Below are positions 1-39,842 of a stretch of 39,842 nucleotides of DNA, one piece after another. A model generated the notes under the pieces. The model saw only the letters and a list, made by a program, of their open reading frames with translations. It had not been told where the DNA came from and did not search any database. Each line of letters opens with the position of its first letter. The stretch's first letter is position 1. The translations under genes were made by a program, and so were the position numbers. The stretch is taken from the sequence record MZ501081; one strand, 5' to 3'. Origin of the DNA: Escherichia phage JeanTinguely.

Positions 1-204
1 ATGCTGTCATTAGATTTTAACAACGAGGTAGTGAAGGCTGCTCCGATTGTAGGGACTGGTGTAGCCGATGGTGCTGCCAGACTCTTTTGGGGACTTTCAT
101 TAAACGAGTGGTTCTATATTGCTGCTATCGCCTACACAGTGGTTCAGATTGGTGCCAAGGTAGTCGATAAGATGATTGACTGGAAGAAAGCCAATAAGGA
201 GTAA
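1..204 (+). CDS. 17.5: Holin (T7 gp17.5 homolog), 67 aa
   Basis: Translation MLSLDFNNE...DWKKANKE is colinear with T7 gp17.5 over the full 67 aa; RBS aaaggagga lies at the window's 3' end if circular. Confidence 0.9.
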   Translation: MLSLDFNNEVVKAAPIVGTGVADGAARLFWGLSLNEWFYIAAIAYTVVQIGAKVVDKMIDWKKANKE

Positions 205-2822: not shown

Positions 2823-3263
2823 ATGATAAGCAAGAAGAAGTATGTAATTGATAAGGATACTGGCTGCTGGAACTTTAAGGGCTGTAAGACGAAGACTGGC
2901 TATGGTCGCATTCGTGTAAATGGAGTCCATTGGATGGCCCACAGGTATTCCCTGAGTTGTCATCTAGGTAGACCGATAGCTGACGGAATGGTTGTGATGC
3001 ACCTATGTGATAATCCTTCATGCGTTAACCCTGAGCACCTTAAGGAAGGGACTCAGAAGGAGAACATAGAGGATTGTATATCAAAAGGCAGGGCAACAAA
3101 GGCTACTGGCAAACGTGTGTCGAGGAGGGACCCTAGTGAGGAACGTAAGGCTATGGTCATTCGTCGATACCATAAAGGGTGGACAGCAACGTCCATAGCG
3201 AGATACCATAAGCTCTCTGTGGCGTGGGTAAAGCTGGTAATTGAGGCTTACCTAAGTGATTGA
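2823..3263 (+). CDS. Free-standing HNH homing endonuclease, 146 aa
   Basis: RBS aaggagg 7 nt before ATG; HNH motif with paired Cys/His (…GYGRIRVNGVHWMAHRYS…HLCDNPSCVNPEHL…); no counterpart at this locus in T7. Confidence 0.8.
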   Translation: MISKKKYVIDKDTGCWNFKGCKTKTGYGRIRVNGVHWMAHRYSLSCHLGRPIADGMVVMHLCDNPSCVNPEHLKEGTQKENIEDCISKGRATKATGKRVSRRDPSEERKAMVIRRYHKGWTATSIARYHKLSVAWVKLVIEAYLSD

Positions 3264-3314
3264 TATTTGAAATTAGTGATACAGGTCTAAGTATATGATT
3301 CCAGACCATTATTC

Positions 3315-3337
3315 TAATTCGACTCACTATAGGGAGA
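3315..3337 (+). promoter_or_regulatory. T7 RNAP promoter, phiOR equivalent
   Basis: taattcgactcactatagggaga, 1 mismatch to the 23-bp T7 consensus taatacgactcactatagggaga. Confidence 0.8.
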
Positions 3338-3428
3338 AGCCTACCTAAAGATAACTATAAGACTTAAAGTGGCCTATAAGGTAGGTTGTTATTATTGTTA
3401 ATACAACCAACATAAAGGGAGGAGACTA

Positions 3429-3578
3429 ATGTTCCGCTTATTGTTGAACCTATTGCGGCATAGAGTCACCTACCGCTTTCTTATGGTACTTTGTGCTGCC
3501 CTTGGGTACGCATCGCTTACTGGAGACCTCAGTTCACTGGAGTCTACCGTTTGCTCTTTACTCACTTGTAGCGATTAG
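3429..3578 (+). CDS. 19.5: gp19.5 homolog, 49 aa small hydrophobic protein
   Basis: ATG after RBS gggagga; MFRLLLNLLRHRVTYRFL... matches T7 gp19.5; below the ORF-track length cutoff. Confidence 0.75.
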   Translation: MFRLLLNLLRHRVTYRFLMVLCAALGYASLTGDLSSLESTVCSLLTCSD

Positions 3579-3818
3579 GGTCTTCCTGACCGACTGATGG
3601 CTCACCGAGGGATTCAGCGGTATGATTGCATCACACCACTTCATCCCTATAGAGTCAAGTCCTAAGGTATATCCATAAAGAGCCTCTAATGGTCTATCCT
3701 AAGGTCTATACCTAAAGATAGGCCATCCTATCAGTGTCACCTAAAGAGGGTCTTAGAGAGGTCCTAAGGGGGTCCCTAGAGGGTCCTTTAAAATATACCA
3801 TAAAAATCTGAGTGACTA

Positions 3819-3999
3819 TCTCACAGTGTACGGACCCAAAGTTCCCCCATAGGGGGGGTCCTAAAGCCCAGCCAATCACCTTGAGTCAACTTTCAGTTGA
3901 CTTTGAGGGTCCCTAAGGGTTGGGGTTGGTCCTTTGGGTTATCTTTGAGTGTTGCTTTGAGTGTCTCTTTGTGTCCCTATCTGTTACAACCTCCTAAAG
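3819..3999. repeat. Terminal-repeat sequence of the mature genome (single copy present; boundaries approximate)
   Basis: tctcacagtgtacgg...ctgttacaacctcctaaag is colinear with the T7 direct terminal repeat, which starts with TCTCACAGTGTACGG at the genome left end; only one copy occurs in the window. Confidence 0.55.
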
Positions 4000-4140
4000 T
4001 CACCTCCTAAAGTCATTCCTACCGTCTACAGCCTAAAGCCTAAACCTAAAGACCCATCAAGTCAACGCCTATCTTAAAGTATCCTCTAAAGACCAGCCTA
4101 AAGACCAGCCTAAAGACCAGCCTAAAGCCTATCCCTAAAG
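4000..4140. repeat. Left-end array of short cctaaag-type repeats, including a 12-bp unit gaccagcctaaa x3 at 4091-4126
   Basis: Direct inspection: repeated (c)ctaaag heptamers and three perfect tandem copies of gaccagcctaaa. Confidence 0.8.
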
Positions 4141-4200
4141 CCTATCCTATAGATGCCCTGTTGTTGCCTATAAAGAGATAATCTTCAATCATTGTCTTTC

Positions 4201-4223
4201 TAATACGACTCACTATAGAGAGA
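4201..4223 (+). promoter_or_regulatory. T7 RNAP promoter, phiOL equivalent
   Basis: taatacgactcactatagagaga, 1 mismatch to consensus. Confidence 0.8.
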
Positions 4224-4287
4224 GACAGACAGAGAGACTACTTAAAGAGCCTTAAAGAGAGAAATTAAAGTTTTTAAAAAAAGAGTA

Positions 4288-4316
4288 TTGACTTAAAGGG
4301 TCATAGGGTTTACTAT
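4288..4316 (+). promoter_or_regulatory. Host sigma70 early promoter A1
   Basis: -35 ttgact (4288-4293), 17-bp spacer, -10 tactat (4311-4316), upstream A/T tract; colinear with T7 A1. Confidence 0.7.
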
Positions 4317-4413
4317 TCATCTCGTCAACGGGACAACGGCCCAAAGCCACTCCCTGAGATACCGGAGTCAACCGGATAAGTAGGCAGCCTGTAAGCCATA
4401 CGAAAAACAGGCA

Positions 4414-4443
4414 TTGACAACACGCAGTAACATGCAGTAAGAT
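4414..4443 (+). promoter_or_regulatory. Host sigma70 early promoter A2
   Basis: -35 ttgaca (4414-4419), 18-bp spacer, -10 taagat (4438-4443). Confidence 0.7.
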
Positions 4444-4520
4444 ACACAGCGTCAATCGGTAGCACACGGTGTCTTCTAGGTGACTTAAGCGCACCACGGC
4501 ACATAAGGTGAACAAAACGG

Positions 4521-4549
4521 TTGACAACATGAAGTAAACACGGTACGAT
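4521..4549 (+). promoter_or_regulatory. Host sigma70 early promoter A3
   Basis: -35 ttgaca (4521-4526), 17-bp spacer, -10 tacgat (4544-4549). Confidence 0.7.
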
Positions 4550-4667
4550 GTACCACATGAAACGACAGTGAGTCACCACACTGAAAGGTGATGCGGTCTA
4601 ATGAAACCTGACCAAAGACGCTCTTTAACAATCTGGTAAATAGCTCTTGAGTGCATGACTAGCGGAT

Positions 4668-4703
4668 AACTCAAGGGTATCGCAAGATGCCCTTTATGAT
4701 ATC
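4668..4703 (+). promoter_or_regulatory. RNase III processing site R0.3
   Basis: aactcaagggtatcgcaagatgccctttatgat hairpin motif just upstream of gene 0.3. Confidence 0.5.
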
Positions 4704-4731
4704 CACTAACAACACTATGAGGTAACACAAG

Positions 4732-5085
4732 ATGGCTATGTCTAACATGACTTACAAAAACGTTTTCGACCACGCTTACGAAATGCTGAAAGAAAACATC
4801 CGTTATGATGACATCCGCGACACTGATGACCTGCACGATGCTATTCACATGGCTGCCGATAGCGCCGTTCCGCACTACTACAGCGACATTTTCAGCGTAA
4901 TGGCAAGTGAAGGCATTGACCTTGAGTTCGAAGACTCTGGTCTTATGCCGGACACCAAGGACGTGACCCGCATTCTACAGGCTCGCATCTATGAGCAACT
5001 CACACTCGACCTCTGGGAAGACGCTGAGGACTTACTGAACGAGTACCTTGAGGAAGTCGAGGAAGAGGAAGAGGAAGAAGAGTAA
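4732..5085 (+). CDS. 0.3: Ocr anti-restriction protein (gp0.3, DNA mimic), 117 aa
   Basis: [22 protein letters not shown]... matches T7 Ocr; highly acidic; C-terminus is a run of eight Glu. Confidence 0.95.
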
Positions 5086-5237
5086 TGACTAATAGCACGC
5101 AATACGGTCTGACCGCTCAAACTGTGCTGTTCTATAGTGACATGGTGCGCTGCGGGTTTGATTGGTCGCTCGCAATGGCACACCTTAAGGAACTGTACGA
5201 AAACAACAAGGCAATAGCTTTGGAATCTGCTGAGTGA
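5085..5237 (+). CDS. 0.4: gp0.4 homolog (FtsZ inhibitor in T7), 50 aa
   Basis: ATG overlaps the 0.3 stop (taATG); [25 protein letters not shown]... closely matches T7 gp0.4. Confidence 0.75.
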   Translation: MTNSTQYGLTAQTVLFYSDMVRCGFDWSLAMAHLKELYENNKAIALESAE

Positions 5238-5238
5238 T

Positions 5239-5276
5239 AAACTCAAGGTCGCTCCTAGCGAGTGGCCTTTATGATT
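5239..5276 (+). promoter_or_regulatory. RNase III processing site R0.5
   Basis: actcaaggtcgctcctagcgagtggcctttatgatt hairpin motif. Confidence 0.55.
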
Positions 5277-5299
5277 ATCATTCTATGAGGATTAAACGC

Positions 5300-5470
5300 A
5301 TGACGACTGGAATCTTTATGGCAACCGTTGCAGTATTCATAGCGATGGGATGGCGTAGCACCGCGTTGGAGCGCTCAAAGTTCCTTAAGCAACGTGATGC
5401 ACTACTAGAGAAGTTTGATGCTGAGGGGCGCGGTCAGGAAGCTCTGGAGGCCATAAAGTGCTATCGCTAA
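5300..5470 (+). CDS. Hypothetical small membrane protein, 56 aa (start inferred)
   Basis: RBS gagga 8 nt before ATG 5300; hydrophobic N-terminus TGIFMATVAVFIAMGW; no resemblance to T7 gp0.5/0.6 that I can recognise. Confidence 0.45.
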   Translation: MTTGIFMATVAVFIAMGWRSTALERSKFLKQRDALLEKFDAEGRGQEALEAIKCYR

Positions 5471-5655
5471 TTATCATCACTGGTTACGCTCTAATCCTAT
5501 ACGTGTTCCTTAGAGACTTCCGCAAGGGTATAAAGGTTCACAAAGCAACGCTAAGTTACTTTAAATACGGATTCCTACCACGGTTTACGGTACGTGAACA
5601 CAACGGGCGCTTTAAGGCGAACAAAGTAGGCATCTTTTACGTAGCAACTCATTAA
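5458..5655 (+). CDS. Hypothetical small membrane protein, 65 aa
   Basis: GTG start overlapping the previous stop, RBS ggagg 7 nt upstream; hydrophobic N-terminus [17 protein letters not shown]. Confidence 0.4.
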
Positions 5656-6824: not shown

Positions 6825-9476
6825 ATGAACACGATTAACATCGCTAAGAACGACTTCTCTGACATCGAACTGGCTGCTATCCCGTTCAACACTCTGGCTG
6901 ACCATTACGGTGAGCGTTTAGCTCGCGAACAGTTGGCCCTTGAGCATGAGTCTTACGAAATGGGTGAAGCACGCTTCCGCAAGATGTTTGAGCGTCAGCT
7001 TAAAGCTGGTGAGGTTGCGGATAACGCTGCCGCTAAGCCTCTCATCACTACTCTGCTCCCCAAGATGATTGCACGCATCAACGATTGGTTTGAGGAAGTG
7101 AAAGCTAAGCGCGGTAAGCGCCCGACAGCCTTCCAGTTCCTGCAAGAAATCAAGCCGGAAGCGATAGCGTACATCACCATTAAGACAACTCTGGCTTGCC
7201 TAACGAGCGTAGACAATACAACCGTTCAGGCTGTAGCAAGTGCAATCGGTCGAGCTATTGAGGACGAGGCGCGCTTTGGTCGAATCCGTGACCTTGAAGC
7301 TAAGCACTTTAAGAAAAACGTTGAGGAACAACTTAACAAGCGCGTAGGGCACGTCTACAAGAAAGCATTCATGCAGGTTGTTGAAGCGGACATGCTCTCT
7401 AAGGGTCTACTAGGTGGCGAGGCGTGGTCTTCGTGGCATAAGGAAGACTCTATTCACGTTGGGGTGCGCTGCATTGAGATGCTCATTGAGTCCACCGGAA
7501 TGGTTAGCTTACATCGTCAAAATGCTGGCGTAGTAGGGCAAGACTCTGAGACTATCGAACTTGCACCGGAATACGCTGAGGCTATCGCAACCCGTGCAGG
7601 TGCGCTGGCTGGTATCTCCCCGATGTTCCAACCTTGCGTGGTTCCTCCTAAGCCTTGGACTGGTATTACTGGTGGTGGATATTGGGCTAACGGTCGCCGT
7701 CCTCTGGCACTGGTACGTACTCATAGCAAGAAAGCACTGATGCGCTACGAAGACGTTTACATGCCTGAGGTGTACAAGGCGATTAACATTGCACAAAACA
7801 CCGCATGGAAAATCAACAAGAAAGTTCTAGCGGTCGCTAACGTAATCACCAAGTGGAAGCATTGCCCTGTAGAGGACATCCCAGCGATTGAGCGCGAAGA
7901 ACTTCCGATGAAACCGGAAGACATCGACACGAATCCTGAGGCTCTCGCCGCATGGAAACGTGCTGCTGCTGCTGTGTACCGCAAGGACAAGGCTCGTAAG
8001 TCTCGCCGTATCAGCTTAGAGTTCATGCTGGAGCAAGCCAATAAGTTCGCTAACCATAAGGCCATCTGGTTCCCTTACAACATGGACTGGCGCGGTCGTG
8101 TTTACGCTGTGTCAATGTTCAACCCGCAAGGTAACGATATGACCAAGGGTCTGCTGACGCTGGCGAAAGGTAAGCCAATCGGTAAGGAAGGTTACTACTG
8201 GTTGAAAATCCACGGTGCAAACTGTGCGGGTGTCGATAAGGTTCCGTTCCCTGAGCGCATCAAGTTCATTGAGGACAACCATGAGAACATCATGGCTTGC
8301 GCTAAGTCTCCGCTGGAGAACACTTGGTGGGCTGAGCAAGATTCTCCGTTCTGCTTCCTCGCGTTCTGCTTTGAGTATGCTGGGGTACAGCACCACGGCT
8401 TAAGCTACAACTGCTCTCTTCCGCTGGCGTTCGATGGGTCTTGCTCTGGCATTCAGCACTTCTCCGCTATGCTCCGAGATGAGGTAGGTGGTCGCGCTGT
8501 TAACCTTCTGCCTAGCGAAACCGTTCAGGACATCTACGGGATTGTCGCTAAGAAAGTCAATTTGATTCTGCAAGAAGACGTAATCAATGGAACCGACAAC
8601 GAAGTAGTTACCGTGACCGATGAGAACACTGGTGAAATCTCTGAGAAAGTCAAGCTGGGCACTAAGGCGCTGGCTGGTCAATGGCTGGCTTACGGTGTAA
8701 CACGTAGCGTGACTAAACGTTCAGTCATGACGCTGGCTTACGGGTCCAAAGAGTTCGGCTTCCGTCAACAAGTGCTGGAAGATACCATTCAGCCAGCTAT
8801 TGATTCCGGTAAAGGTCTGATGTTCACTCAACCGAATCAGGCTGCTGGATACATGGCGAAACTGATTTGGGAAGCTGTGAGCGTTACGGTGGTAGCCGCT
8901 GTGGAGGCAATGAACTGGCTCAAGTCTGCCGCTAAGCTGCTGGCTGCTGAGGTCAAAGATAAGAAGACTGGAGAGATTCTTCGCAAACGTTGCGCTGTAC
9001 ATTGGGTAACTCCTGATGGGTTCCCTGTGTGGCAGGAATACAAGAAGCCAATTCAGACTCGCTTGAACCTGATTTTCCTCGGCCAGTTCCGCTTACAGCC
9101 AACCATTAACACTAACAAGGATAGCGAGATTGATGCACACAAGCAGGAGTCCGGCATTGCTCCTAACTTTGTACACAGCCAAGACGGTAGCCATCTGCGT
9201 AAGACTGTAGTGTGGGCGCATGAGAAGTACGGAATCGAGTCTTTTGCATTGATTCACGACTCCTTCGGGACCATTCCGGCTGACGCTGCTAACCTGTTCA
9301 AAGCTGTTCGCGAAACTATGGTGGACACCTATGAGTCTTGTGATGTACTGGCTGACTTCTATGACCAGTTCGCTGACCAGTTGCATGAGTCTCAACTGGA
9401 CAAAATGCCAGCACTTCCGGCTAAAGGTAACTTGAACCTCCAAGACATCCTTAAGTCAGACTTCGCGTTTGCGTAA
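6825..9476 (+). CDS. 1: Single-subunit DNA-directed RNA polymerase (T7 RNAP), 883 aa
   Basis: 883-aa product essentially identical to T7 RNA polymerase along its whole length (MNTINIAKNDFSDIELAAIPFNTLADHYGERLAREQ...). Confidence 0.98.
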   Translation: MNTINIAKNDFSDIELAAIPFNTLADHYGERLAREQLALEHESYEMGEARFRKMFERQLKAGEVADNAAAKPLITTLLPKMIARINDWFEEVKAKRGKRPTAFQFLQEIKPEAIAYITIKTTLACLTSVDNTTVQAVASAIGRAIEDEARFGRIRDLEAKHFKKNVEEQLNKRVGHVYKKAFMQVVEADMLSKGLLGGEAWSSWHKEDSIHVGVRCIEMLIESTGMVSLHRQNAGVVGQDSETIELAPEYAEAIATRAGALAGISPMFQPCVVPPKPWTGITGGGYWANGRRPLALVRTHSKKALMRYEDVYMPEVYKAINIAQNTAWKINKKVLAVANVITKWKHCPVEDIPAIEREELPMKPEDIDTNPEALAAWKRAAAAVYRKDKARKSRRISLEFMLEQANKFANHKAIWFPYNMDWRGRVYAVSMFNPQGNDMTKGLLTLAKGKPIGKEGYYWLKIHGANCAGVDKVPFPERIKFIEDNHENIMACAKSPLENTWWAEQDSPFCFLAFCFEYAGVQHHGLSYNCSLPLAFDGSCSGIQHFSAMLRDEVGGRAVNLLPSETVQDIYGIVAKKVNLILQEDVINGTDNEVVTVTDENTGEISEKVKLGTKALAGQWLAYGVTRSVTKRSVMTLAYGSKEFGFRQQVLEDTIQPAIDSGKGLMFTQPNQAAGYMAKLIWEAVSVTVVAAVEAMNWLKSAAKLLAAEVKDKKTGEILRKRCAVHWVTPDGFPVWQEYKKPIQTRLNLIFLGQFRLQPTINTNKDSEIDAHKQESGIAPNFVHSQDGSHLRKTVVWAHEKYGIESFALIHDSFGTIPADAANLFKAVRETMVDTYESCDVLADFYDQFADQLHESQLDKMPALPAKGNLNLQDILKSDFAFA

Positions 9477-13918: not shown

Positions 13919-14374
13919 GTGGCTGGCGCATACGCTGCGCGTGGTATCCGAAAGGTCGGGACATTCCGTTCCGGCCTAGAAGATAAGGTCTCTAAGCAGC
14001 TAGAGGGTAAGGGCATTCAGTTCGACTATGAACTATGGAAAATCCCTTACGTTGTCCCTGCGAGCAACCATGTGTATACTCCAGACTTCCTACTGCCTAA
14101 CGGAATCTTTATTGAAACCAAGGGTTTATGGGAGAGTGACGACCGAAAGAAACACTTATTGGTTCGCGAACAGTTCCCCGAACTGGACATCAGACTGGTG
14201 TTCTCAAGCTCACGCACTAAGCTGTATAAAGGGTCTCCGACCAGTTATGGCGAGTTCTGCGAAAAGCACGGTATTCTGTTTGCTGACAAATTAATTCCTG
14301 TAGAATGGCTCAAAGAACCCAAAAAGGAGGTGCCATTTGACAAGCTGAAACAATCGAAGGGAGGAAAGAAATAA
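13919..14374 (+). CDS. 3: Endonuclease I (Holliday-junction resolvase, gp3), 151 aa
   Basis: GTG start directly after the 2.5 stop; MAGAYAARGIRKVGTFRSGLEDKVSKQLEGKGIQFDYE... matches T7 gp3. Confidence 0.9.
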   Translation: MAGAYAARGIRKVGTFRSGLEDKVSKQLEGKGIQFDYELWKIPYVVPASNHVYTPDFLLPNGIFIETKGLWESDDRKKHLLVREQFPELDIRLVFSSSRTKLYKGSPTSYGEFCEKHGILFADKLIPVEWLKEPKKEVPFDKLKQSKGGKK

Positions 14375-14829
14375 TGGCTCGTGTACAGTTTAAACAACGT
14401 GAATCTACTGACGCAATCTTTGTTCACTGCTCGGCTACCAAGCCAAGTCAGAATGTAGGTGTCCGTGAGATTCGTCAGTGGCATAAAGAGCAAGGTTGGC
14501 TTGATGTCGGGTATCACTTTATCATCAAGCGCGATGGTACTGTAGAGGAAGGCCGAGATGAGATGGCTGTAGGCTCTCACGCTAAGGACTACAATCACAA
14601 CTCTATTGGTGTCTGCCTTGTAGGTGGTATCGACGATAAAGGTAAGTTTGACGCTAACTTTACGCCAGCCCAAATGCAATCCCTCCGCTCACTGCTTGTC
14701 ACACTGCTGGCTAAGTACGAAGGCGCTGTGCTTCGCGCGCATCACGATGTGGCACCTAAGGCTTGCCCTTCGTTCGACCTTAAGCGTTGGTGGGAGAAGA
14801 ATGAACTTGTAACTTCTGACCGAGGGTAA
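14374..14829 (+). CDS. 3.5: Lysozyme / N-acetylmuramoyl-L-alanine amidase and RNAP inhibitor (gp3.5), 151 aa
   Basis: MARVQFKQRESTDAIFVHCSATKPSQNVGVREIRQWHKEQGWLDVGYHFII... near-identical to T7 lysozyme. Confidence 0.95.
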   Translation: MARVQFKQRESTDAIFVHCSATKPSQNVGVREIRQWHKEQGWLDVGYHFIIKRDGTVEEGRDEMAVGSHAKDYNHNSIGVCLVGGIDDKGKFDANFTPAQMQSLRSLLVTLLAKYEGAVLRAHHDVAPKACPSFDLKRWWEKNELVTSDRG

Positions 14830-33835: not shown

Positions 33836-36800
33836 ATGGATAAGTACGATAAGAACGTACCAAGTGAGTATGATGGTCTGTTCCAGAAGGCGGCTGATGC
33901 CACAGGGGTCTCTTATGACCTTTTACGTAAAGTCGCTTGGACGGAATCACGATTTGTACCTACAGCTAAATCTAAGACTGGACCGCTAGGGATGATGCAA
34001 TTCACCAAGGCTACCGCTAAGGCCCTTGGTCTGCGAGTTACCGATGGTCCAGATGATGACCGACTGAACCCTGAGTTGGCTATCAATGCTGCTGCCAAGC
34101 ACCTTGCTGAACTGGTGAGTAAATTCGATGGGGACGAACTTAAGGCGGCCCTTGCGTACAATCAAGGTGAGGGACACTTTGGTAATCCACAACTTGAGGC
34201 GTACTCCAAGGGAGACTTCGCGTCCATCTCTGAGGAAGGACGGAACTACATGCGTAACCTTCTGGATGTTGCTAAGTCACCTATGGCTGGACAGTTGGAA
34301 ACTTTTGGAGGTATCACCCCAAAGGGTAAAGGCATTCCGGCTGAGGTAGGATTGGCTGGAATCGGTCACAGTCAGAAAGTAACGCGGGAACTTCCTGAGT
34401 CCACAAGTTTTGACGTTAAGGGTATCGAACAGGAGGCTCCGGCGAAACCATTCGCCAAGGACTTTTGGGAGACCCACGGAGAGACACTTGACGAGTACAA
34501 TAATCGTTCAACCTTCTTCGGATTCAAAAATGCTGCCGAAGCTGAACTCTCAAACTCAGTAGCTGGGATGGCTTTCCGTGCTGGTCGTCTCGACAATGGT
34601 TTTGACGTGTTTAAAGACACCATTACGCCGACTCGCTGGAACTCTCACATCTGGACTCCAGAAGAGTTAGAGAAGATTAGAAAAGAGGTTAAGAACCCTG
34701 CGTACATCAACGTGGTAACTGGTGGTTCCCCTGAGAATCTTGACGACCTCATAAAGATGGCTAACGAGAACTTTGAGGCTGACTCCCGCGCTGCCGAAGC
34801 TGGCCTAGGTGCCAAACTGAGTGCTGGCGTTATTGGCGCTGGTGTGGACCCACTTAGCTATGTTCCTATGGTCGGTGTAACTGGTAAGGGCTTTAAGTTA
34901 ATCAATAAGGCTCTCGTAGTTGGTGCAGAAAGTGCTACTCTGAACGTTGCATCCGAAGGTCTCCGTACCTCTGTAGCGGGTGGTGATGCAGACTATGCTG
35001 GTGCGACCTTAGGTGGCTTTGTGTTTGGCGCTGGTATGTCTGCAATCAGTGACGCTGTAGCTGCTGGCCTGAAACGTAGTAAACCAGAAGCTGAGTTCGA
35101 CAATGAGTTCATCGGTCCTATGATGCGAATGGAAGCCCGTGAGACCGCACGCAACGCCAACTCTACGGACCTCTCTCGGATGAACACTGAGAACATGAAG
35201 TTTGAAGGTGAACATAATGGTGTCCCTTATGCGGAATTACCAACAGAGAGAGGTGCCGTGGTGTTGCATGATGGCTCCGTCCTAAGTGCAAGCAACCCAA
35301 TCAACCCTAAGACTCTCAAAGAGTTCTCAGAGGTTGACCCTGAGAAGGCAGCACGAGGAATCAAACTTGCTGGGTTCACCGAGATTGGTTTGAAGACCTT
35401 GGGGTCTGACGATGCTGACATCCGTAGCGTGGCTATCGACCTCGTTCGCTCTCCTACTGGTATGCAGTCTGGTGCCTCAGGTAAGTTCGGTGCAACAGCT
35501 TCTGACATCCACGAGAGACTTCATTGTACTGACCAGCGTACTTATAATGACTTGTACAAAGCAATGTCTGACGCTATGAAAGACCCTGAGTTCTCTACTG
35601 GCGGTGCTAAGATGTCCCGTGAAGAAGTTCGCTACACTATCTATCGTAGAGCGGCACTGGCTATTGAGCGTCCAGAGTTACAGAAGGCACTTACTCCGTC
35701 TGAGAGAATCGTTATGGACATCATTAAGCGTCACTTTGACACCAAGCGTGAACTTATGGAAAACCCAGCAATCTTCGGTAACACAAAGGCTGTGAGTATC
35801 TTCCCTGAGAGTCGTCACAAAGGGACTTACGTTCCTCACGTATACGACCGTCACGCCAAGGCGCTGATGATTCAACGCTACGGTGCCGAAGGTTTACAGG
35901 AAGGTATTGCTCGTTCGTGGATGAACAGCTACGTCTCCAGACCTGAGGTCAAGGCCAGAGTCGATGAGACGCTTAAGGAAGTACACGGGGTGAATGAAGT
36001 AACGCCAGAGATGGTAGAGAAGTACGCTATGGATAAGGCTTACGGTATCTCCCATTCAGACCAGTTCACCAATAGTTCCATAATCGAAGAGAACATTGAG
36101 GGCTTAGTAGGTATCGAGAACAACTCATTCCTTGAGGCGCGTAACTTGTTTGATTCGGACCTATCCATCACTATGCCAGACGGACAGCAATTCTCAGTGA
36201 ACGACCTAAGGGACTTCGATATGTTCCGCATCATGCCAGCGTATGACCGCCGTATCAACGGTGACATCGCCATCATGGGGTCTACTGGTAAAACCACTAA
36301 GGAACTTAAGGATGAGATTCTAGCTCTCAAAGCGAAAGCTGAGGGAGACGGTAAGAAGACTGGCGAGGTTCATGCCCTAATGGATACCGTTAAGATTCTT
36401 ACTGGTCGCGCTAGACGCAATCAGGACACTGTGTGGGAAACAGCACTGCGTTCCATCAATGACCTAGGGTTCTTCGCTAAGAACGCCTATATGGGTGCTC
36501 AGAACATTACGGAGATTTCTGGGATGATTGTCACTGGTAACGTGCGCGCTCTCGGTCACGGTATCCCAATTCTGCGCGATATACTCTACAAGTCTAAACC
36601 AGTTTCCGCTAAGGAACTCAAGGAACTCCATGCGTCTCTGTTCGGGAAGGAGGTGGACCAGTTGATTCGACCTAAACGTGCTGACATTGTGCAGCGCCTA
36701 AGGGAAGCAACTGATACCGGACCTGCTGTGGCGAACATCGTAGGGACCTTGAAGTATTCCACACAGGAACTGGCTGCTCGTTCACCTTGGACGATGATGT

Positions 36801-37792
36801 TGAACGGCACTACTAACTACCTTCTGGATGCTGCGCGTCAAGGGATGCTTGGGGATATTATTAGTGCCACCTTAACAGGTAAGACTACCCGCTGGGAGAA
36901 AGAAGGATTCCTTCGGGGTGCCTCCGTAACTCCTGAGCAGATGGCTGGCATCAAGTCTCTCATCAAGGAACATATGGTACGTGGTGAGGACGGTAAGTTT
37001 ACCGTTAAGGACAAGCAAGCGTTCTCTATGGACCCACGGGCTATGGACTTATGGCGACTTGCTGACAAGGTAGCTGATGAGGCAATGCTGCGTCCGCATA
37101 AGGTGTCCTTACAGGATTCCCATGCGTTCGGAGCACTAGGTAAGATGGTAATGCAGTTTAAGTCTTTCACTATCAAGTCCCTTAACTCTAAGTTCCTGCG
37201 AACCTTCTATGATGGATACAAGAACAACCGAGCGATTGACGCTGCGCTGAGCATTATCACCTCAATGGGTCTCGCTGGTGGTTTCTATGCTATGGCCGTA
37301 CACGTCAAAGCGTATGGGATGCCTAAGGAGAAACGTAAGGAGTATTTGGAGCGTGCATTGGACCCAACCATGATTGCCCACGCTGCGTTGTCTCGTAGTT
37401 CTCATTTAGGTGCTCCTTTGGCTATGGTGGACCTCATTGGCGGTGTCTTGGGGTTCGAGTCATCAAAGATGGCTCGCTCTACGATTCTACCTAAGGACAC
37501 CATGAAGGAACGTGACCAAAACAAACCGTACACCTCTAGAGAGATAATTGGCGATATGGGTTCAAACCTTCTGGAACAGATGCCTTCTGCTGGCTTTGTG
37601 GCTAACGTAGGGGCGACCCTGATGAATGCTGCTGGTGTTGTCAACTCACCTAACAAAGCAACCGAGCAGGACTTCATGACTGGCTTAATGAACTCTACCA
37701 AAGAGTTAGTACCGAACGACCCATTGACTCAACAGCTTGTGTTGAAGATTTATGAGGCCAATGGTGTGAACTTGAGGGAACGTAGGAAATAA
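33836..37792 (+). CDS. 16: Internal virion protein D (gp16) with N-terminal lytic transglycosylase domain, 1318 aa
   Basis: MDKYDKNVPSEYDGLFQKAADATGVSYDLLRKVAWTESRF...GMMQFT (transglycosylase motif); same length as T7 gp16. Confidence 0.95.
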   Translation: MDKYDKNVPSEYDGLFQKAADATGVSYDLLRKVAWTESRFVPTAKSKTGPLGMMQFTKATAKALGLRVTDGPDDDRLNPELAINAAAKHLAELVSKFDGDELKAALAYNQGEGHFGNPQLEAYSKGDFASISEEGRNYMRNLLDVAKSPMAGQLETFGGITPKGKGIPAEVGLAGIGHSQKVTRELPESTSFDVKGIEQEAPAKPFAKDFWETHGETLDEYNNRSTFFGFKNAAEAELSNSVAGMAFRAGRLDNGFDVFKDTITPTRWNSHIWTPEELEKIRKEVKNPAYINVVTGGSPENLDDLIKMANENFEADSRAAEAGLGAKLSAGVIGAGVDPLSYVPMVGVTGKGFKLINKALVVGAESATLNVASEGLRTSVAGGDADYAGATLGGFVFGAGMSAISDAVAAGLKRSKPEAEFDNEFIGPMMRMEARETARNANSTDLSRMNTENMKFEGEHNGVPYAELPTERGAVVLHDGSVLSASNPINPKTLKEFSEVDPEKAARGIKLAGFTEIGLKTLGSDDADIRSVAIDLVRSPTGMQSGASGKFGATASDIHERLHCTDQRTYNDLYKAMSDAMKDPEFSTGGAKMSREEVRYTIYRRAALAIERPELQKALTPSERIVMDIIKRHFDTKRELMENPAIFGNTKAVSIFPESRHKGTYVPHVYDRHAKALMIQRYGAEGLQEGIARSWMNSYVSRPEVKARVDETLKEVHGVNEVTPEMVEKYAMDKAYGISHSDQFTNSSIIEENIEGLVGIENNSFLEARNLFDSDLSITMPDGQQFSVNDLRDFDMFRIMPAYDRRINGDIAIMGSTGKTTKELKDEILALKAKAEGDGKKTGEVHALMDTVKILTGRARRNQDTVWETALRSINDLGFFAKNAYMGAQNITEISGMIVTGNVRALGHGIPILRDILYKSKPVSAKELKELHASLFGKEVDQLIRPKRADIVQRLREATDTGPAVANIVGTLKYSTQELAARSPWTMMLNGTTNYLLDAARQGMLGDIISATLTGKTTRWEKEGFLRGASVTPEQMAGIKSLIKEHMVRGEDGKFTVKDKQAFSMDPRAMDLWRLADKVADEAMLRPHKVSLQDSHAFGALGKMVMQFKSFTIKSLNSKFLRTFYDGYKNNRAIDAALSIITSMGLAGGFYAMAVHVKAYGMPKEKRKEYLERALDPTMIAHAALSRSSHLGAPLAMVDLIGGVLGFESSKMARSTILPKDTMKERDQNKPYTSREIIGDMGSNLLEQMPSAGFVANVGATLMNAAGVVNSPNKATEQDFMTGLMNSTKELVPNDPLTQQLVLKIYEANGVNLRERRK

Positions 37793-37812
37793 TACGACTC
37801 ACTATAGGGAGA
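37790..37812 (+). promoter_or_regulatory. T7 RNAP class III promoter phi17
   Basis: Perfect consensus; overlaps the gene 16 stop codon. Confidence 0.9.
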
Positions 37813-37864
37813 GGTGAAAGAATCTTCTCCCTGTAGTCTCTTAGATTTACTTTAAGGAGGTCAA

Positions 37865-39796
37865 ATGGCTAACGTAATTAAAACCGTTTTGACTTACCAG
37901 TTAGATGGCTCCAAGCGTGATTTTAATATCCCGTTTGAGTATCTAGCCCGTAAGTTCGTAGTGGTAACTCTTATTGGTGTAGACCGCAAGGTTCTTACGA
38001 TTAATGCAGACTACCGTTTTGCTACACGTACTACCATATCACTGACCAAGGCTTGGGGTCCAGCCGATGGCTACACGACCATCGAGTTACGTCGAGTAAC
38101 CTCAGCGACCGACCGATTGGTTGACTTTACGGACGGCTCCATCCTCCGTGCGTATGACCTTAACGTTGCTCAGATTCAGACAATGCACGTAGCGGAAGAG
38201 GCTCGTGACATGACTGCGGATACTATCGGTGTCAACAATAACGGTCACTTGGATGCCCGTGGTCGTAAGATTGTGAACCTAGCGTTCGCTACTGGCGACT
38301 ATGATGCCGTCCCACTTAAGCAGATTAAGGAACGTGAGACCTCTGTGTGGAACGCTGTTACTAAAGCTGATGAACACGCTAACCGCTCCAACAAGGAAGC
38401 CAATCGCTCACGCGACGAAGCTGACCGCGCGAAACGTGAAGCTGACCGCTCGACCCAACAGGCAGGTGTTTCTACGGCACAAGCAGTTGAGTCCAAGAAT
38501 CAAGCTGACCGTTCCAACTCTGAGGCCAATCGTGCTAAAGGCTATGCTGACAGTATGACCGCAAGTGTCGCTGAGGCCAAGAAGCAAGCTGACCGTTCCA
38601 ACTCTGAGGCCAATCGTGCCCGTGATGAGGCCAATCGTTCTGCCGGAGAAGTGACTAAGGCTGCTGCTGAGGTTGCTAAAGCTGCTGCACACGTTGAGAC
38701 CGCTAAGGGACACGCTGACCGTGCTAACACTGAGGCTAACCGCTCTAAGAGTGAAGCTGACCGTGCTAAGACTGAGGCCGATAAGTTGGGTAATATGAAT
38801 GGCCTCGCGGGAACCATTGAGAGCATTGGGAGTAACGGCAAGGATGTGAACTTCAAAGGTGGCGTGAATGGTCACACACTTCTAGCTAAAGATTCTGTAC
38901 ACGTTGGGGTTCAGCCAAACACTGCGTCACTCACTGAAACCACACTACGCATTCGCAACCGTAACAACAAGGAGCGCACTTGGGACATCTATGCTTGGGG
39001 TAATGATTCTGGACGTGGTAATGTGCTTGAGTTCGGGTCTAACTATGGTCAAACATGGGGGATGTACTTGCAGTTTGCTAAAGGTGACTCACAAGATTCA
39101 CGACTTAGTGTTAATGGTGAGATTGTAGCTAAGACAGATATTTCAGGAAGGGGCATCACAGCAAGTGGGCAATTGATTACCAGCTCGCCATTCCTTAAGC
39201 TGATTAACTCTGGTCGTCGCCACATTCAGTTCATGACTGCCGATAACTACACTGATGGTTATCTCTACAAAGACCCCGGTGTTGGTGTGTGGAGACTTAA
39301 CTTTGGTCAGGCAGCTAGCATGGAGTATACGTTTGCTTCAAATGGTACATTAACATCCAGCTCCGGCTGGTATATCCCACCAGATGGCAACCTGTACATC
39401 CAGAAATATGGACTGTATATTGATACGTGGGTTAACAACCGCTTGGGCGAACACGCCTACACCAAAGGAGAAGTGAACAACTTGGTCAATGCTCGATTGA
39501 CACAAGCCCAAGCTGATGCTCGATACGTCAATAAGAATGCTGGGTGGGCTGAGGTGTGGAAAGGCACTGCTGGTGGTGGTGTTTCCGTAGGTCTCTCACA
39601 GGATGTCCGATGGAGAACTATCTGGATTCAGACTAACGGACGCTGGAACGCTGTGCCTATTGGTGACAATGCGTCTTACTTCATCGCGTCTGATGGTGGC
39701 TGGTTGAAGTTCACTATCTCCAACAACGGGCGAACATTCCGTAACGATGAGGATCACCACTCTGTACCAACTCGTATTCTAGTACAGAGCCAATAA
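37865..39796 (+). CDS. 17: Tail fibre protein gp17, 643 aa, with divergent middle region and extended coiled-coil
   Basis: N-terminus MANVIKTVLTYQLDGSKRDFNIPFEYLARKFVVVTLIGVDRKVL and C-terminus ...GGGVSV...YFIASDGGWL... resemble T7 gp17; from about residue 145 to the C-terminal domain the sequence differs and is 90 aa longer overall. Confidence 0.93.
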   Translation: MANVIKTVLTYQLDGSKRDFNIPFEYLARKFVVVTLIGVDRKVLTINADYRFATRTTISLTKAWGPADGYTTIELRRVTSATDRLVDFTDGSILRAYDLNVAQIQTMHVAEEARDMTADTIGVNNNGHLDARGRKIVNLAFATGDYDAVPLKQIKERETSVWNAVTKADEHANRSNKEANRSRDEADRAKREADRSTQQAGVSTAQAVESKNQADRSNSEANRAKGYADSMTASVAEAKKQADRSNSEANRARDEANRSAGEVTKAAAEVAKAAAHVETAKGHADRANTEANRSKSEADRAKTEADKLGNMNGLAGTIESIGSNGKDVNFKGGVNGHTLLAKDSVHVGVQPNTASLTETTLRIRNRNNKERTWDIYAWGNDSGRGNVLEFGSNYGQTWGMYLQFAKGDSQDSRLSVNGEIVAKTDISGRGITASGQLITSSPFLKLINSGRRHIQFMTADNYTDGYLYKDPGVGVWRLNFGQAASMEYTFASNGTLTSSSGWYIPPDGNLYIQKYGLYIDTWVNNRLGEHAYTKGEVNNLVNARLTQAQADARYVNKNAGWAEVWKGTAGGGVSVGLSQDVRWRTIWIQTNGRWNAVPIGDNASYFIASDGGWLKFTISNNGRTFRNDEDHHSVPTRILVQSQ

Positions 39797-39842
39797 GGAT
39801 GGCCAATAGACCACGGACGGTCTCAATTTAAAGGAGGACATA

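Follow-up and report, generated by a model that had tools for sequence, protein, structure and literature searches.

The predicted physical DNA ends of Escherichia phage JeanTinguely were confirmed in this study to meet inside the window, which is the whole stretch of 39,842 bases that was analysed, across one copy of the direct terminal repeat (TR). The whole-genome comparison identified the window as a complete T7-like phage genome, whose parts across the junction are ordered, from 5' to 3', as gene 19.5, right-end non-coding DNA, a single TR, a heptamer array, phiOL, A1–A3 and ocr. Very probably, this layout was created by a circular short-read assembly of a Teseptimavirus genome in which the terminal repeats were collapsed and which was subsequently linearised at the ATG of the holin gene. 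Such layouts arise often when short-read assemblies are made and deposited, and they are documented as artefacts. The underlying T7 biology is already known, and the layout of the junction opens no new biological question.

The first base of the window is the A of the ATG of gene 17.5 (positions 1–204, + strand), which encodes a class II holin (Pfam Phage_holin_2_2, E = 3.7e-34). The DNA upstream of this ATG is found at the 3' end of the window and is contiguous with the ATG in relatives; base 1 is an artificial linearisation point of the record. Gene 17.5 is followed by gene 18 (208–477, +; Pfam DNA_Packaging_2, E = 1e-15), which encodes the terminase small subunit and is collinear with T7 gene 18, and by gene 19 (1025–2785, +; Pfam Terminase-T7_RNaseH-like, E = 5.6e-40), which encodes the terminase large subunit. 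Both terminase subunits are trans-acting maturation factors, and genes 18.5/18.7 are located between their genes. The DNA identity between positions 2–2791 and T7 36345–39136 was 94.7%. The T7-type late promoter phiOR (TAATTCGACTCACTATAGGGAGA; 3315–3337, +) differs from the consensus of T7 promoters at one position, and its location agrees with those of phiOR of T7 (39229) and of 13a. It is oriented rightward, through gene 19.5 toward the junction, and no terminator-like site was found between phiOR and the TR. Gene 19.5 (3429–3578, +), the last gene on the T7 map, is a 49-aa ORF (Pfam DUF5465, E = 9.3e-9) whose identities to those of T7, Yanou, phiA1122 and 13a were 95–97%. The initial annotation described gene 19.5 as running without a break into the TR. 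Their order was found as described, but the two are not directly adjacent: 240 nt of right-end unique non-coding DNA (3579–3818, +), including right-hand heptamer-like repeats, lie between them to the left of the TR, and T7 has the same arrangement.

The single TR of 160 nt (3819–3978, +) is homologous to the TRs that were measured in T7, Yanou, phiA1122 and 13a. It begins with TCTCACAGTGTACGG at 3819, where the start of the TR-colinear segment had been placed initially. The TR is followed by the left-end heptamer array of SRL type (3979–4150, +), with CCTAAAG units of which eight exact copies occur between 3993 and 4140. This array is collinear with the left end of T7, with many indels, and the T7.1 record annotates 'SRL' and 'TR' in the region that matches it. 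CCTAAAG was found 19 times in the 39,842 bases vs. 4.1 times expected by chance, a count reached by none of 100 shuffles, and 12 of the 19 copies are within 3344–4140. The T7-type left-end promoter phiOL (TAATACGACTCACTATAGAGAGA; 4201–4223, +; one mismatch) agrees in location with phiOL of T7 (405) and of 13a (423–445). The early host-RNAP promoters A1, A2 and A3 (4288–4316, 4414–4443 and 4521–4549, +) match the sigma-70 consensus at 9–10 of 12 positions and are collinear with T7 A1–A3 at 498, 626 and 750. Thus, the left-end heptamers and phiOL/A1–A3, which had been proposed to come next after the TR, were indeed found there, at 3979–4549.

Further to the right are gene 0.3 (ocr; 4732–5085, +; Pfam ocr, E = 2.3e-62), which is the first gene on the T7 map, gene 1 for a T7-type RNA polymerase (6825–9476, +; Pfam RNA_pol, E = 3.3e-108, and RPOL_N, E = 3.1e-34) and gene 3.5 for an amidase/lysozyme (14374–14829, +; Pfam Amidase_2, E = 1.8e-18). 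The gene for endonuclease I is also present, and the T7 gene order 17.5-18-18.5-19-19.5 / 0.3-0.7-1 is kept. The non-coding DNA at 3579–4223 is an end and packaging region and not an intergenic spacer. In addition, a GA-rich short run (GAGAGAGACAGACAGAGAGAC; 4224–4250) is located directly after phiOL, where phiA1122 possesses a long (GA)n tract and T7 has none. This run represents a variable microsatellite with which the phiOL transcript begins.

For comparison, a synthetic T7 concatemer junction was constructed from NC_001604, in which the right end and one TR were joined to the left-end unique sequence. Positions 3867–5568 of this construct matched 3406–5097 of the window as one HSP (86.8% over 1733 columns), and both TR boundaries were crossed unbroken. 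A second copy of 3819–3978 was absent from the whole window, in which the next best matches were 10–14 nt long and at chance level and which showed no family of long direct repeats. The single HSP and the lack of a second copy bear out the earlier view that a single TR copy stands between right-end and left-end unique DNA. Moreover, the last 700 and first 700 bases of the window were contiguous, in single alignment pieces, in SYGE1 (95.7%), BSP161, PYps50T and 285P. As the two are contiguous in these independent records, the window is one full genome circle minus one TR. The same contiguity supports the initial reading of 39,842 bp as the genome length minus one repeat.

The lengths of TRs were measured by exact prefix/suffix match in five records with both ends and were 160 nt for T7, 159 nt for Yanou, 148 nt for phiA1122, 170 nt for 13a and 231 nt for T3. 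Multiple alignment placed the TRs of all four Teseptimaviruses with independently determined ends (T7, Yanou, phiA1122 and 13a) at 3819–3978. The flanks are the same in the window and in these four phages, ...GAGTGACTA|TCTCACAGTG... at the left and ...GTGTCCCT|ATCTGTTACA... at the right. The left boundary, TATACCATAAAAATCTGAGTGACTA|TCTCACAGTGTACGG, is that of T7, and 25 of 25 nt to the left of 3819 match T7. The longer TR of T3 gave no global alignment, yet its boundary motifs are the same. The pattern ...TCTGA..TA|TCTCAYAG ... GTCCCT|ATCTGTTA was found at the boundaries of 20 distinct Studiervirinae TRs of 145–241 nt, which came from isolates as well as metagenome contigs; in the 14-mer scan of viral contigs, which yielded mostly chance matches, T7-like loci made up 21 of the 122 motif loci. 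When 3640–4160 was compared by blastn with 50,697 phage records, many linear T7-type records in GenBank ended at 3978 (query position 339) and others started at 3819 (query position 180). The TRs of Teseptimavirus ranged from 144 to 174 nt, and the variation resulted from internal indels with unshifted boundaries. The predicted ends of the virion DNA are 3819 (left) and 3978 (right). Judged from these homologies, the virion DNA is most likely linear, with about 40,002 bp and a 160-bp direct repeat at each end, a length obtained by re-opening the circle at 3819 and adding a second TR copy.

Given the varied lengths of TRs among relatives, the value of 160 nt presupposes that no error was made in assembling the TR and its homopolymer runs at 3844–3858. 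At these positions, a C-run/ATA/G-run palindrome has unequal runs of 5 C and 7 G, and the runs vary widely among relatives, with up to 11 C in the metagenome contig L022. The segment represents either a homopolymer that is hypervariable or a hotspot of sequencing errors, and it affects the exact length of the TR. As a structure, this CCCCC-ATA-GGGGGGG palindrome was rejected: its fold does not stand out from those of shuffled sequences (z = -0.44), and T3 is without it. Two inconsistencies were also observed in the records of relatives. The TR in the 13a record (NC_011045) is annotated as 1–170 at the left end but as 164 nt at the right end, while the exact repeat measures 170 nt, and vB_YpYeO9 (OQ828305) is flagged 'circular' though its record starts exactly at the TR.

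By their collinearity, TR boundaries and T7-type terminase, the sequences place JeanTinguely in the T7-type group (Studiervirinae, Teseptimavirus). Its identities to 13a and T7 were 92–94% over 23 kb. The T7 junction (NC_001604 39538–39937 joined to 161 onward) has the same order of parts from phiOR to ocr, a TR of the same 160 nt and the same boundary bases. However, the TR of the window is only about 88% identical to that of T7, its left heptamer array differs by several indels, and T7 is without the HNH endonuclease gene that stands between gene 19 and phiOR in the window. The closest relative is Escherichia phage EmilieLinder_Bas103 (PQ850602.1), with 96–97% identity. Similar to the window, the Bas103 record, which is labelled 'circular', begins with the holin CDS at 1..204 and contains a single internal TR (159 nt, record position 3433). 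Different from the window, Bas103 lacks the HNH endonuclease insertion of about 385 bp between gene 19 and phiOR, and its tail-fibre region also differs. Match coordinates indicate that Bas102, Bas104 and Bas65 apparently have the same record start.

In the proposed route to this layout, right-end reads (right-unique sequence plus TR) and left-end reads (TR plus left-unique sequence) would overlap within the TR. Both TR copies would be merged, and the contig would close as a circle of the genome length minus one TR, i.e., 39,842 bp. The circle would then be re-opened at the ATG of gene 17.5, which is the convention of the BASEL collection, so that the physical ends become internal, the left one at 3819 and the right one at 3978. 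By analogy, a BASEL-style pipeline may be the source of the layout. According to Elek et al. (PMC10438801), T7-like phages lose their DTRs when they are assembled from short reads or by a hybrid approach; the BASEL papers describe the procedure of circularising and re-opening, and papers on isolate sequencing treat such a layout as routine. The initial annotation had offered two origins, a concatemer junction or an assembler that circularises the genome. The structure common to both was found, and the evidence favours the route by assembly and deposition, because the window starts exactly at the holin ATG and spans exactly one genome circle, and because the 'circular' Bas103 record has the same start and a T7 assembly, OZ035731.1 (39,778 bp), has the same layout. 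Similar to the window, OZ035731.1 is permuted and has one internal TR, and its identity to the synthetic single-TR junction was 4554/4554. The DTR ends of this phage are experimentally established. Thus, a phage with known DTR ends takes on this layout by assembly alone. OZ035731.1 differs from the window in that it is linearised within gene 17.5 (T7 coordinate 36524) and unannotated. The junction was also spanned in one alignment piece by 30–40 GenBank records and by the metagenome contigs L022, L023 and L027.

In the concatemers of T7-type replication, one TR is common to two adjacent genomes and must be duplicated during processing. Thus, the merged sequence equals a real junction: a real concatemer junction and a collapsed repeat are identical by construction and cannot be told apart by sequence alone. 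The sequenced DNA might have held real junctions if it came from intracellular replicating phage DNA, e.g., of infected cells or a metagenome, given that T7-type replication makes such junctions, whose sequence would equal that of the window (PMC3276506), and that the three metagenome contigs above are known to contain an internal junction. However, the window spans exactly one genome circle from a start codon onward, which is the mark left by the curation and re-linearisation of a circular contig, and a raw concatemer read or contig is not expected to close at the exact unit length. Public T7 assemblies also show the same layout, which is called routine in papers on isolate sequencing. We consider it improbable that real junctions were sequenced.

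Slightly less probable still is that the terminal repeats are present with boundaries that differ from the prediction by T7 homology, either because the TR is longer or shorter or because it was mis-sized in homopolymer or heptamer runs. The range of 144 to 174 nt among the TRs of close relatives, the varied C and G runs at 3844–3858 and the inconsistent TR lengths in the 13a record itself (170 vs. 164 nt) are in its favour. Against these, both boundary contexts are those of T7 (25 of 25 nt to the left of 3819, and GTGTCCCT|ATCTGTTACA at 3978/3979), and they are kept in every examined genome with determined ends, including T3, while changes in length come from internal indels. Virion DNA that is circularly permuted by headful packaging or has a single repeat copy, with no fixed ends at this locus, is a formal possibility that finds no support in the sequence and is exceedingly improbable. 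The terminase is of T7 type, the DNA of the gene 17.5–19 region is 94.7% identical to that of T7, the cis apparatus with which T7 processes its junction is conserved at the base level throughout, and the related phages with determined ends all carry exact short DTRs. The collapse of the two terminal repeats during assembly is the preferred explanation for the layout of the window.

Under this explanation, annotators should treat the record as circularly permuted, with a predicted virion genome that runs from 3819 round to 3978. Correct ends are important when genome lengths are compiled into statistics, when packaging signals are compared and when the phage is to be rebooted or engineered with synthetic DNA.

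The segments of the junction were conserved to different extents. The right-end non-coding DNA at 3579–3818 was the most conserved one, with identities of 96–97.5% to T7, Yanou, phiA1122 and 13a; the identities to the same phages were lower for gene 19.5 (95–97%), the TR (85–91%) and the left heptamer array (84–93%, with many indels). Within the right flank, 3579–3660 was identical to T7, Yanou and phiA1122 at 82 of 82 positions, and 3777–3818 to Yanou, phiA1122 and 13a at 42 of 42. This conservation fits with a sequence-specific signal that would be carried on the right side of the junction. An imperfect hairpin at 3608–3648 is located inside the invariant 82-bp block (DNA fold of -7.2 kcal/mol, z = -1.85). 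Another hairpin, at 3689–3726, has a 10-bp stem (ATGGTCTATC...GATAGGCCAT), is about 93–130 nt to the left of the TR and was found in all four Teseptimaviruses folded. At a similar distance from its TR, T3 (locus L012, 642–683) possesses a different inverted repeat, AAAGA..CCCTGTA / TACAGGG..TCTTT. A hairpin-end intermediate was proposed by Chung, Nardone and Hinkle in 1990, as cited in PMC11482910, and neither hairpin of the window is equated here with this published intermediate. A long imperfect hairpin at 3658–3806 is likewise not claimed, as its z score was -3.1 in the window but only -1.5 in T7 and -1.2 in T3; of this structure, the inner hairpin at 3689–3726 alone is shared among the Teseptimaviruses. 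Searches of 3200–4800 against Rfam with permissive E-value filters did not find any known RNA family.

The TR itself contains a palindrome that is predicted to form a hairpin, AGTCAACT-TTC-AGTTGACT (3884–3902; DNA fold of -6.4 kcal/mol, z = -3.18). Among only nine distinct T7/T3-type variants, 92% of the cells were paired and 3 of the 7 pairs changed on both sides, and the covariation score of these nine sequences was reached by 1 of 500 shuffles. The arms are GTCAACC/GGTTGAC in T7, GTCAACT/AGTTGAC in the group of the window, TTAACC/GGTTAA in T3 and GCCAACC/GGTTGGC in L027; compared with T7, the window thus has a compensatory change from C:G to T:A. Moreover, in three lineages (L021, L027 and L030), the loop is inverted and reads GAA, the reverse complement of TTC. 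The hairpin at 3884–3902 and the invariant block at 3579–3660 might be uncharacterised cis-acting parts of T7-type end formation, in terminase recognition or TR duplication, a suggestion that is tentative and rather unlikely to hold.

Directly to the right of the TR is ATCTGTT (3979–3985, +), the class II pause/termination signal of T7 RNA polymerase ('CJ' site), which is preceded by the T at 3978. The resulting TATCTGTT at 3978–3985 straddles the right boundary of the TR and is the sole HATCTGTT on the + strand in 39.8 kb. HATCTGTT was not enriched in the window (5 observed vs. 4.2 expected), and the significance of the CJ site comes from its strand and homologous position rather than from its count. 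The boundary CCCT|ATCTGTTA is kept in T7, Yanou, phiA1122, 13a and T3 as well as in the 20 distinct Studiervirinae TRs, and in the record of 13a, 169..177 carries the annotation 'concatemeric junction'. Previous results showed that class II signals have the core ATCTGTT and require A, C or T before it, and the location of CJ is known (10.1101/2021.01.11.426313, PMC11617373, 10.64898/2026.02.12.705533). The complex of the polymerase with lysozyme (gp3.5) pauses at CJ and interacts with gp18/gp19, upon which maturation and packaging begin (PMC3276506). In an insertion screen of T7, the genome ends were largely dispensable except for positions 142 and 162, which flank the right boundary of the TR (PMC11482910).

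All cis and trans parts that T7 uses on its junction are, as judged by homology, present in JeanTinguely, including phiOR, the right flank, the TR, CJ, gp18, gp19, RNA polymerase, gp3.5 and endonuclease I. Transcription from phiOR would enter the junction, and the RNA polymerase–lysozyme complex would pause at ATCTGTT and engage the terminase gp18/gp19. For this locus, the literature on T7 predicts pausing, cleavage and the duplication of the TR.

The HNH gene between gene 19 and phiOR (2823–3263, +) encodes a homing endonuclease of 146 aa with a C-terminal HTH (Pfam HNH_3, 8.9e-9; HTH_23, 1.9e-5). It is located at the same place in 13a (gene 19.4) and Yanou (ORF54), and its absence from Bas103 accounts for the offset of about 385 bp between the Bas103 record and the window. 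At the end of the window, the tail fibre gene, which is at the position of gene 17, contains 21-nt-periodic repeats of the families D2 and D3 (38362–38787), whose period suggests a heptad-type coiled-coil. Finally, the 3' part of the tail fibre gene (39143–39842) had few good matches, with 95.7% identity to SYGE1 and 77–80% to others, suggesting a mosaic receptor-binding region.
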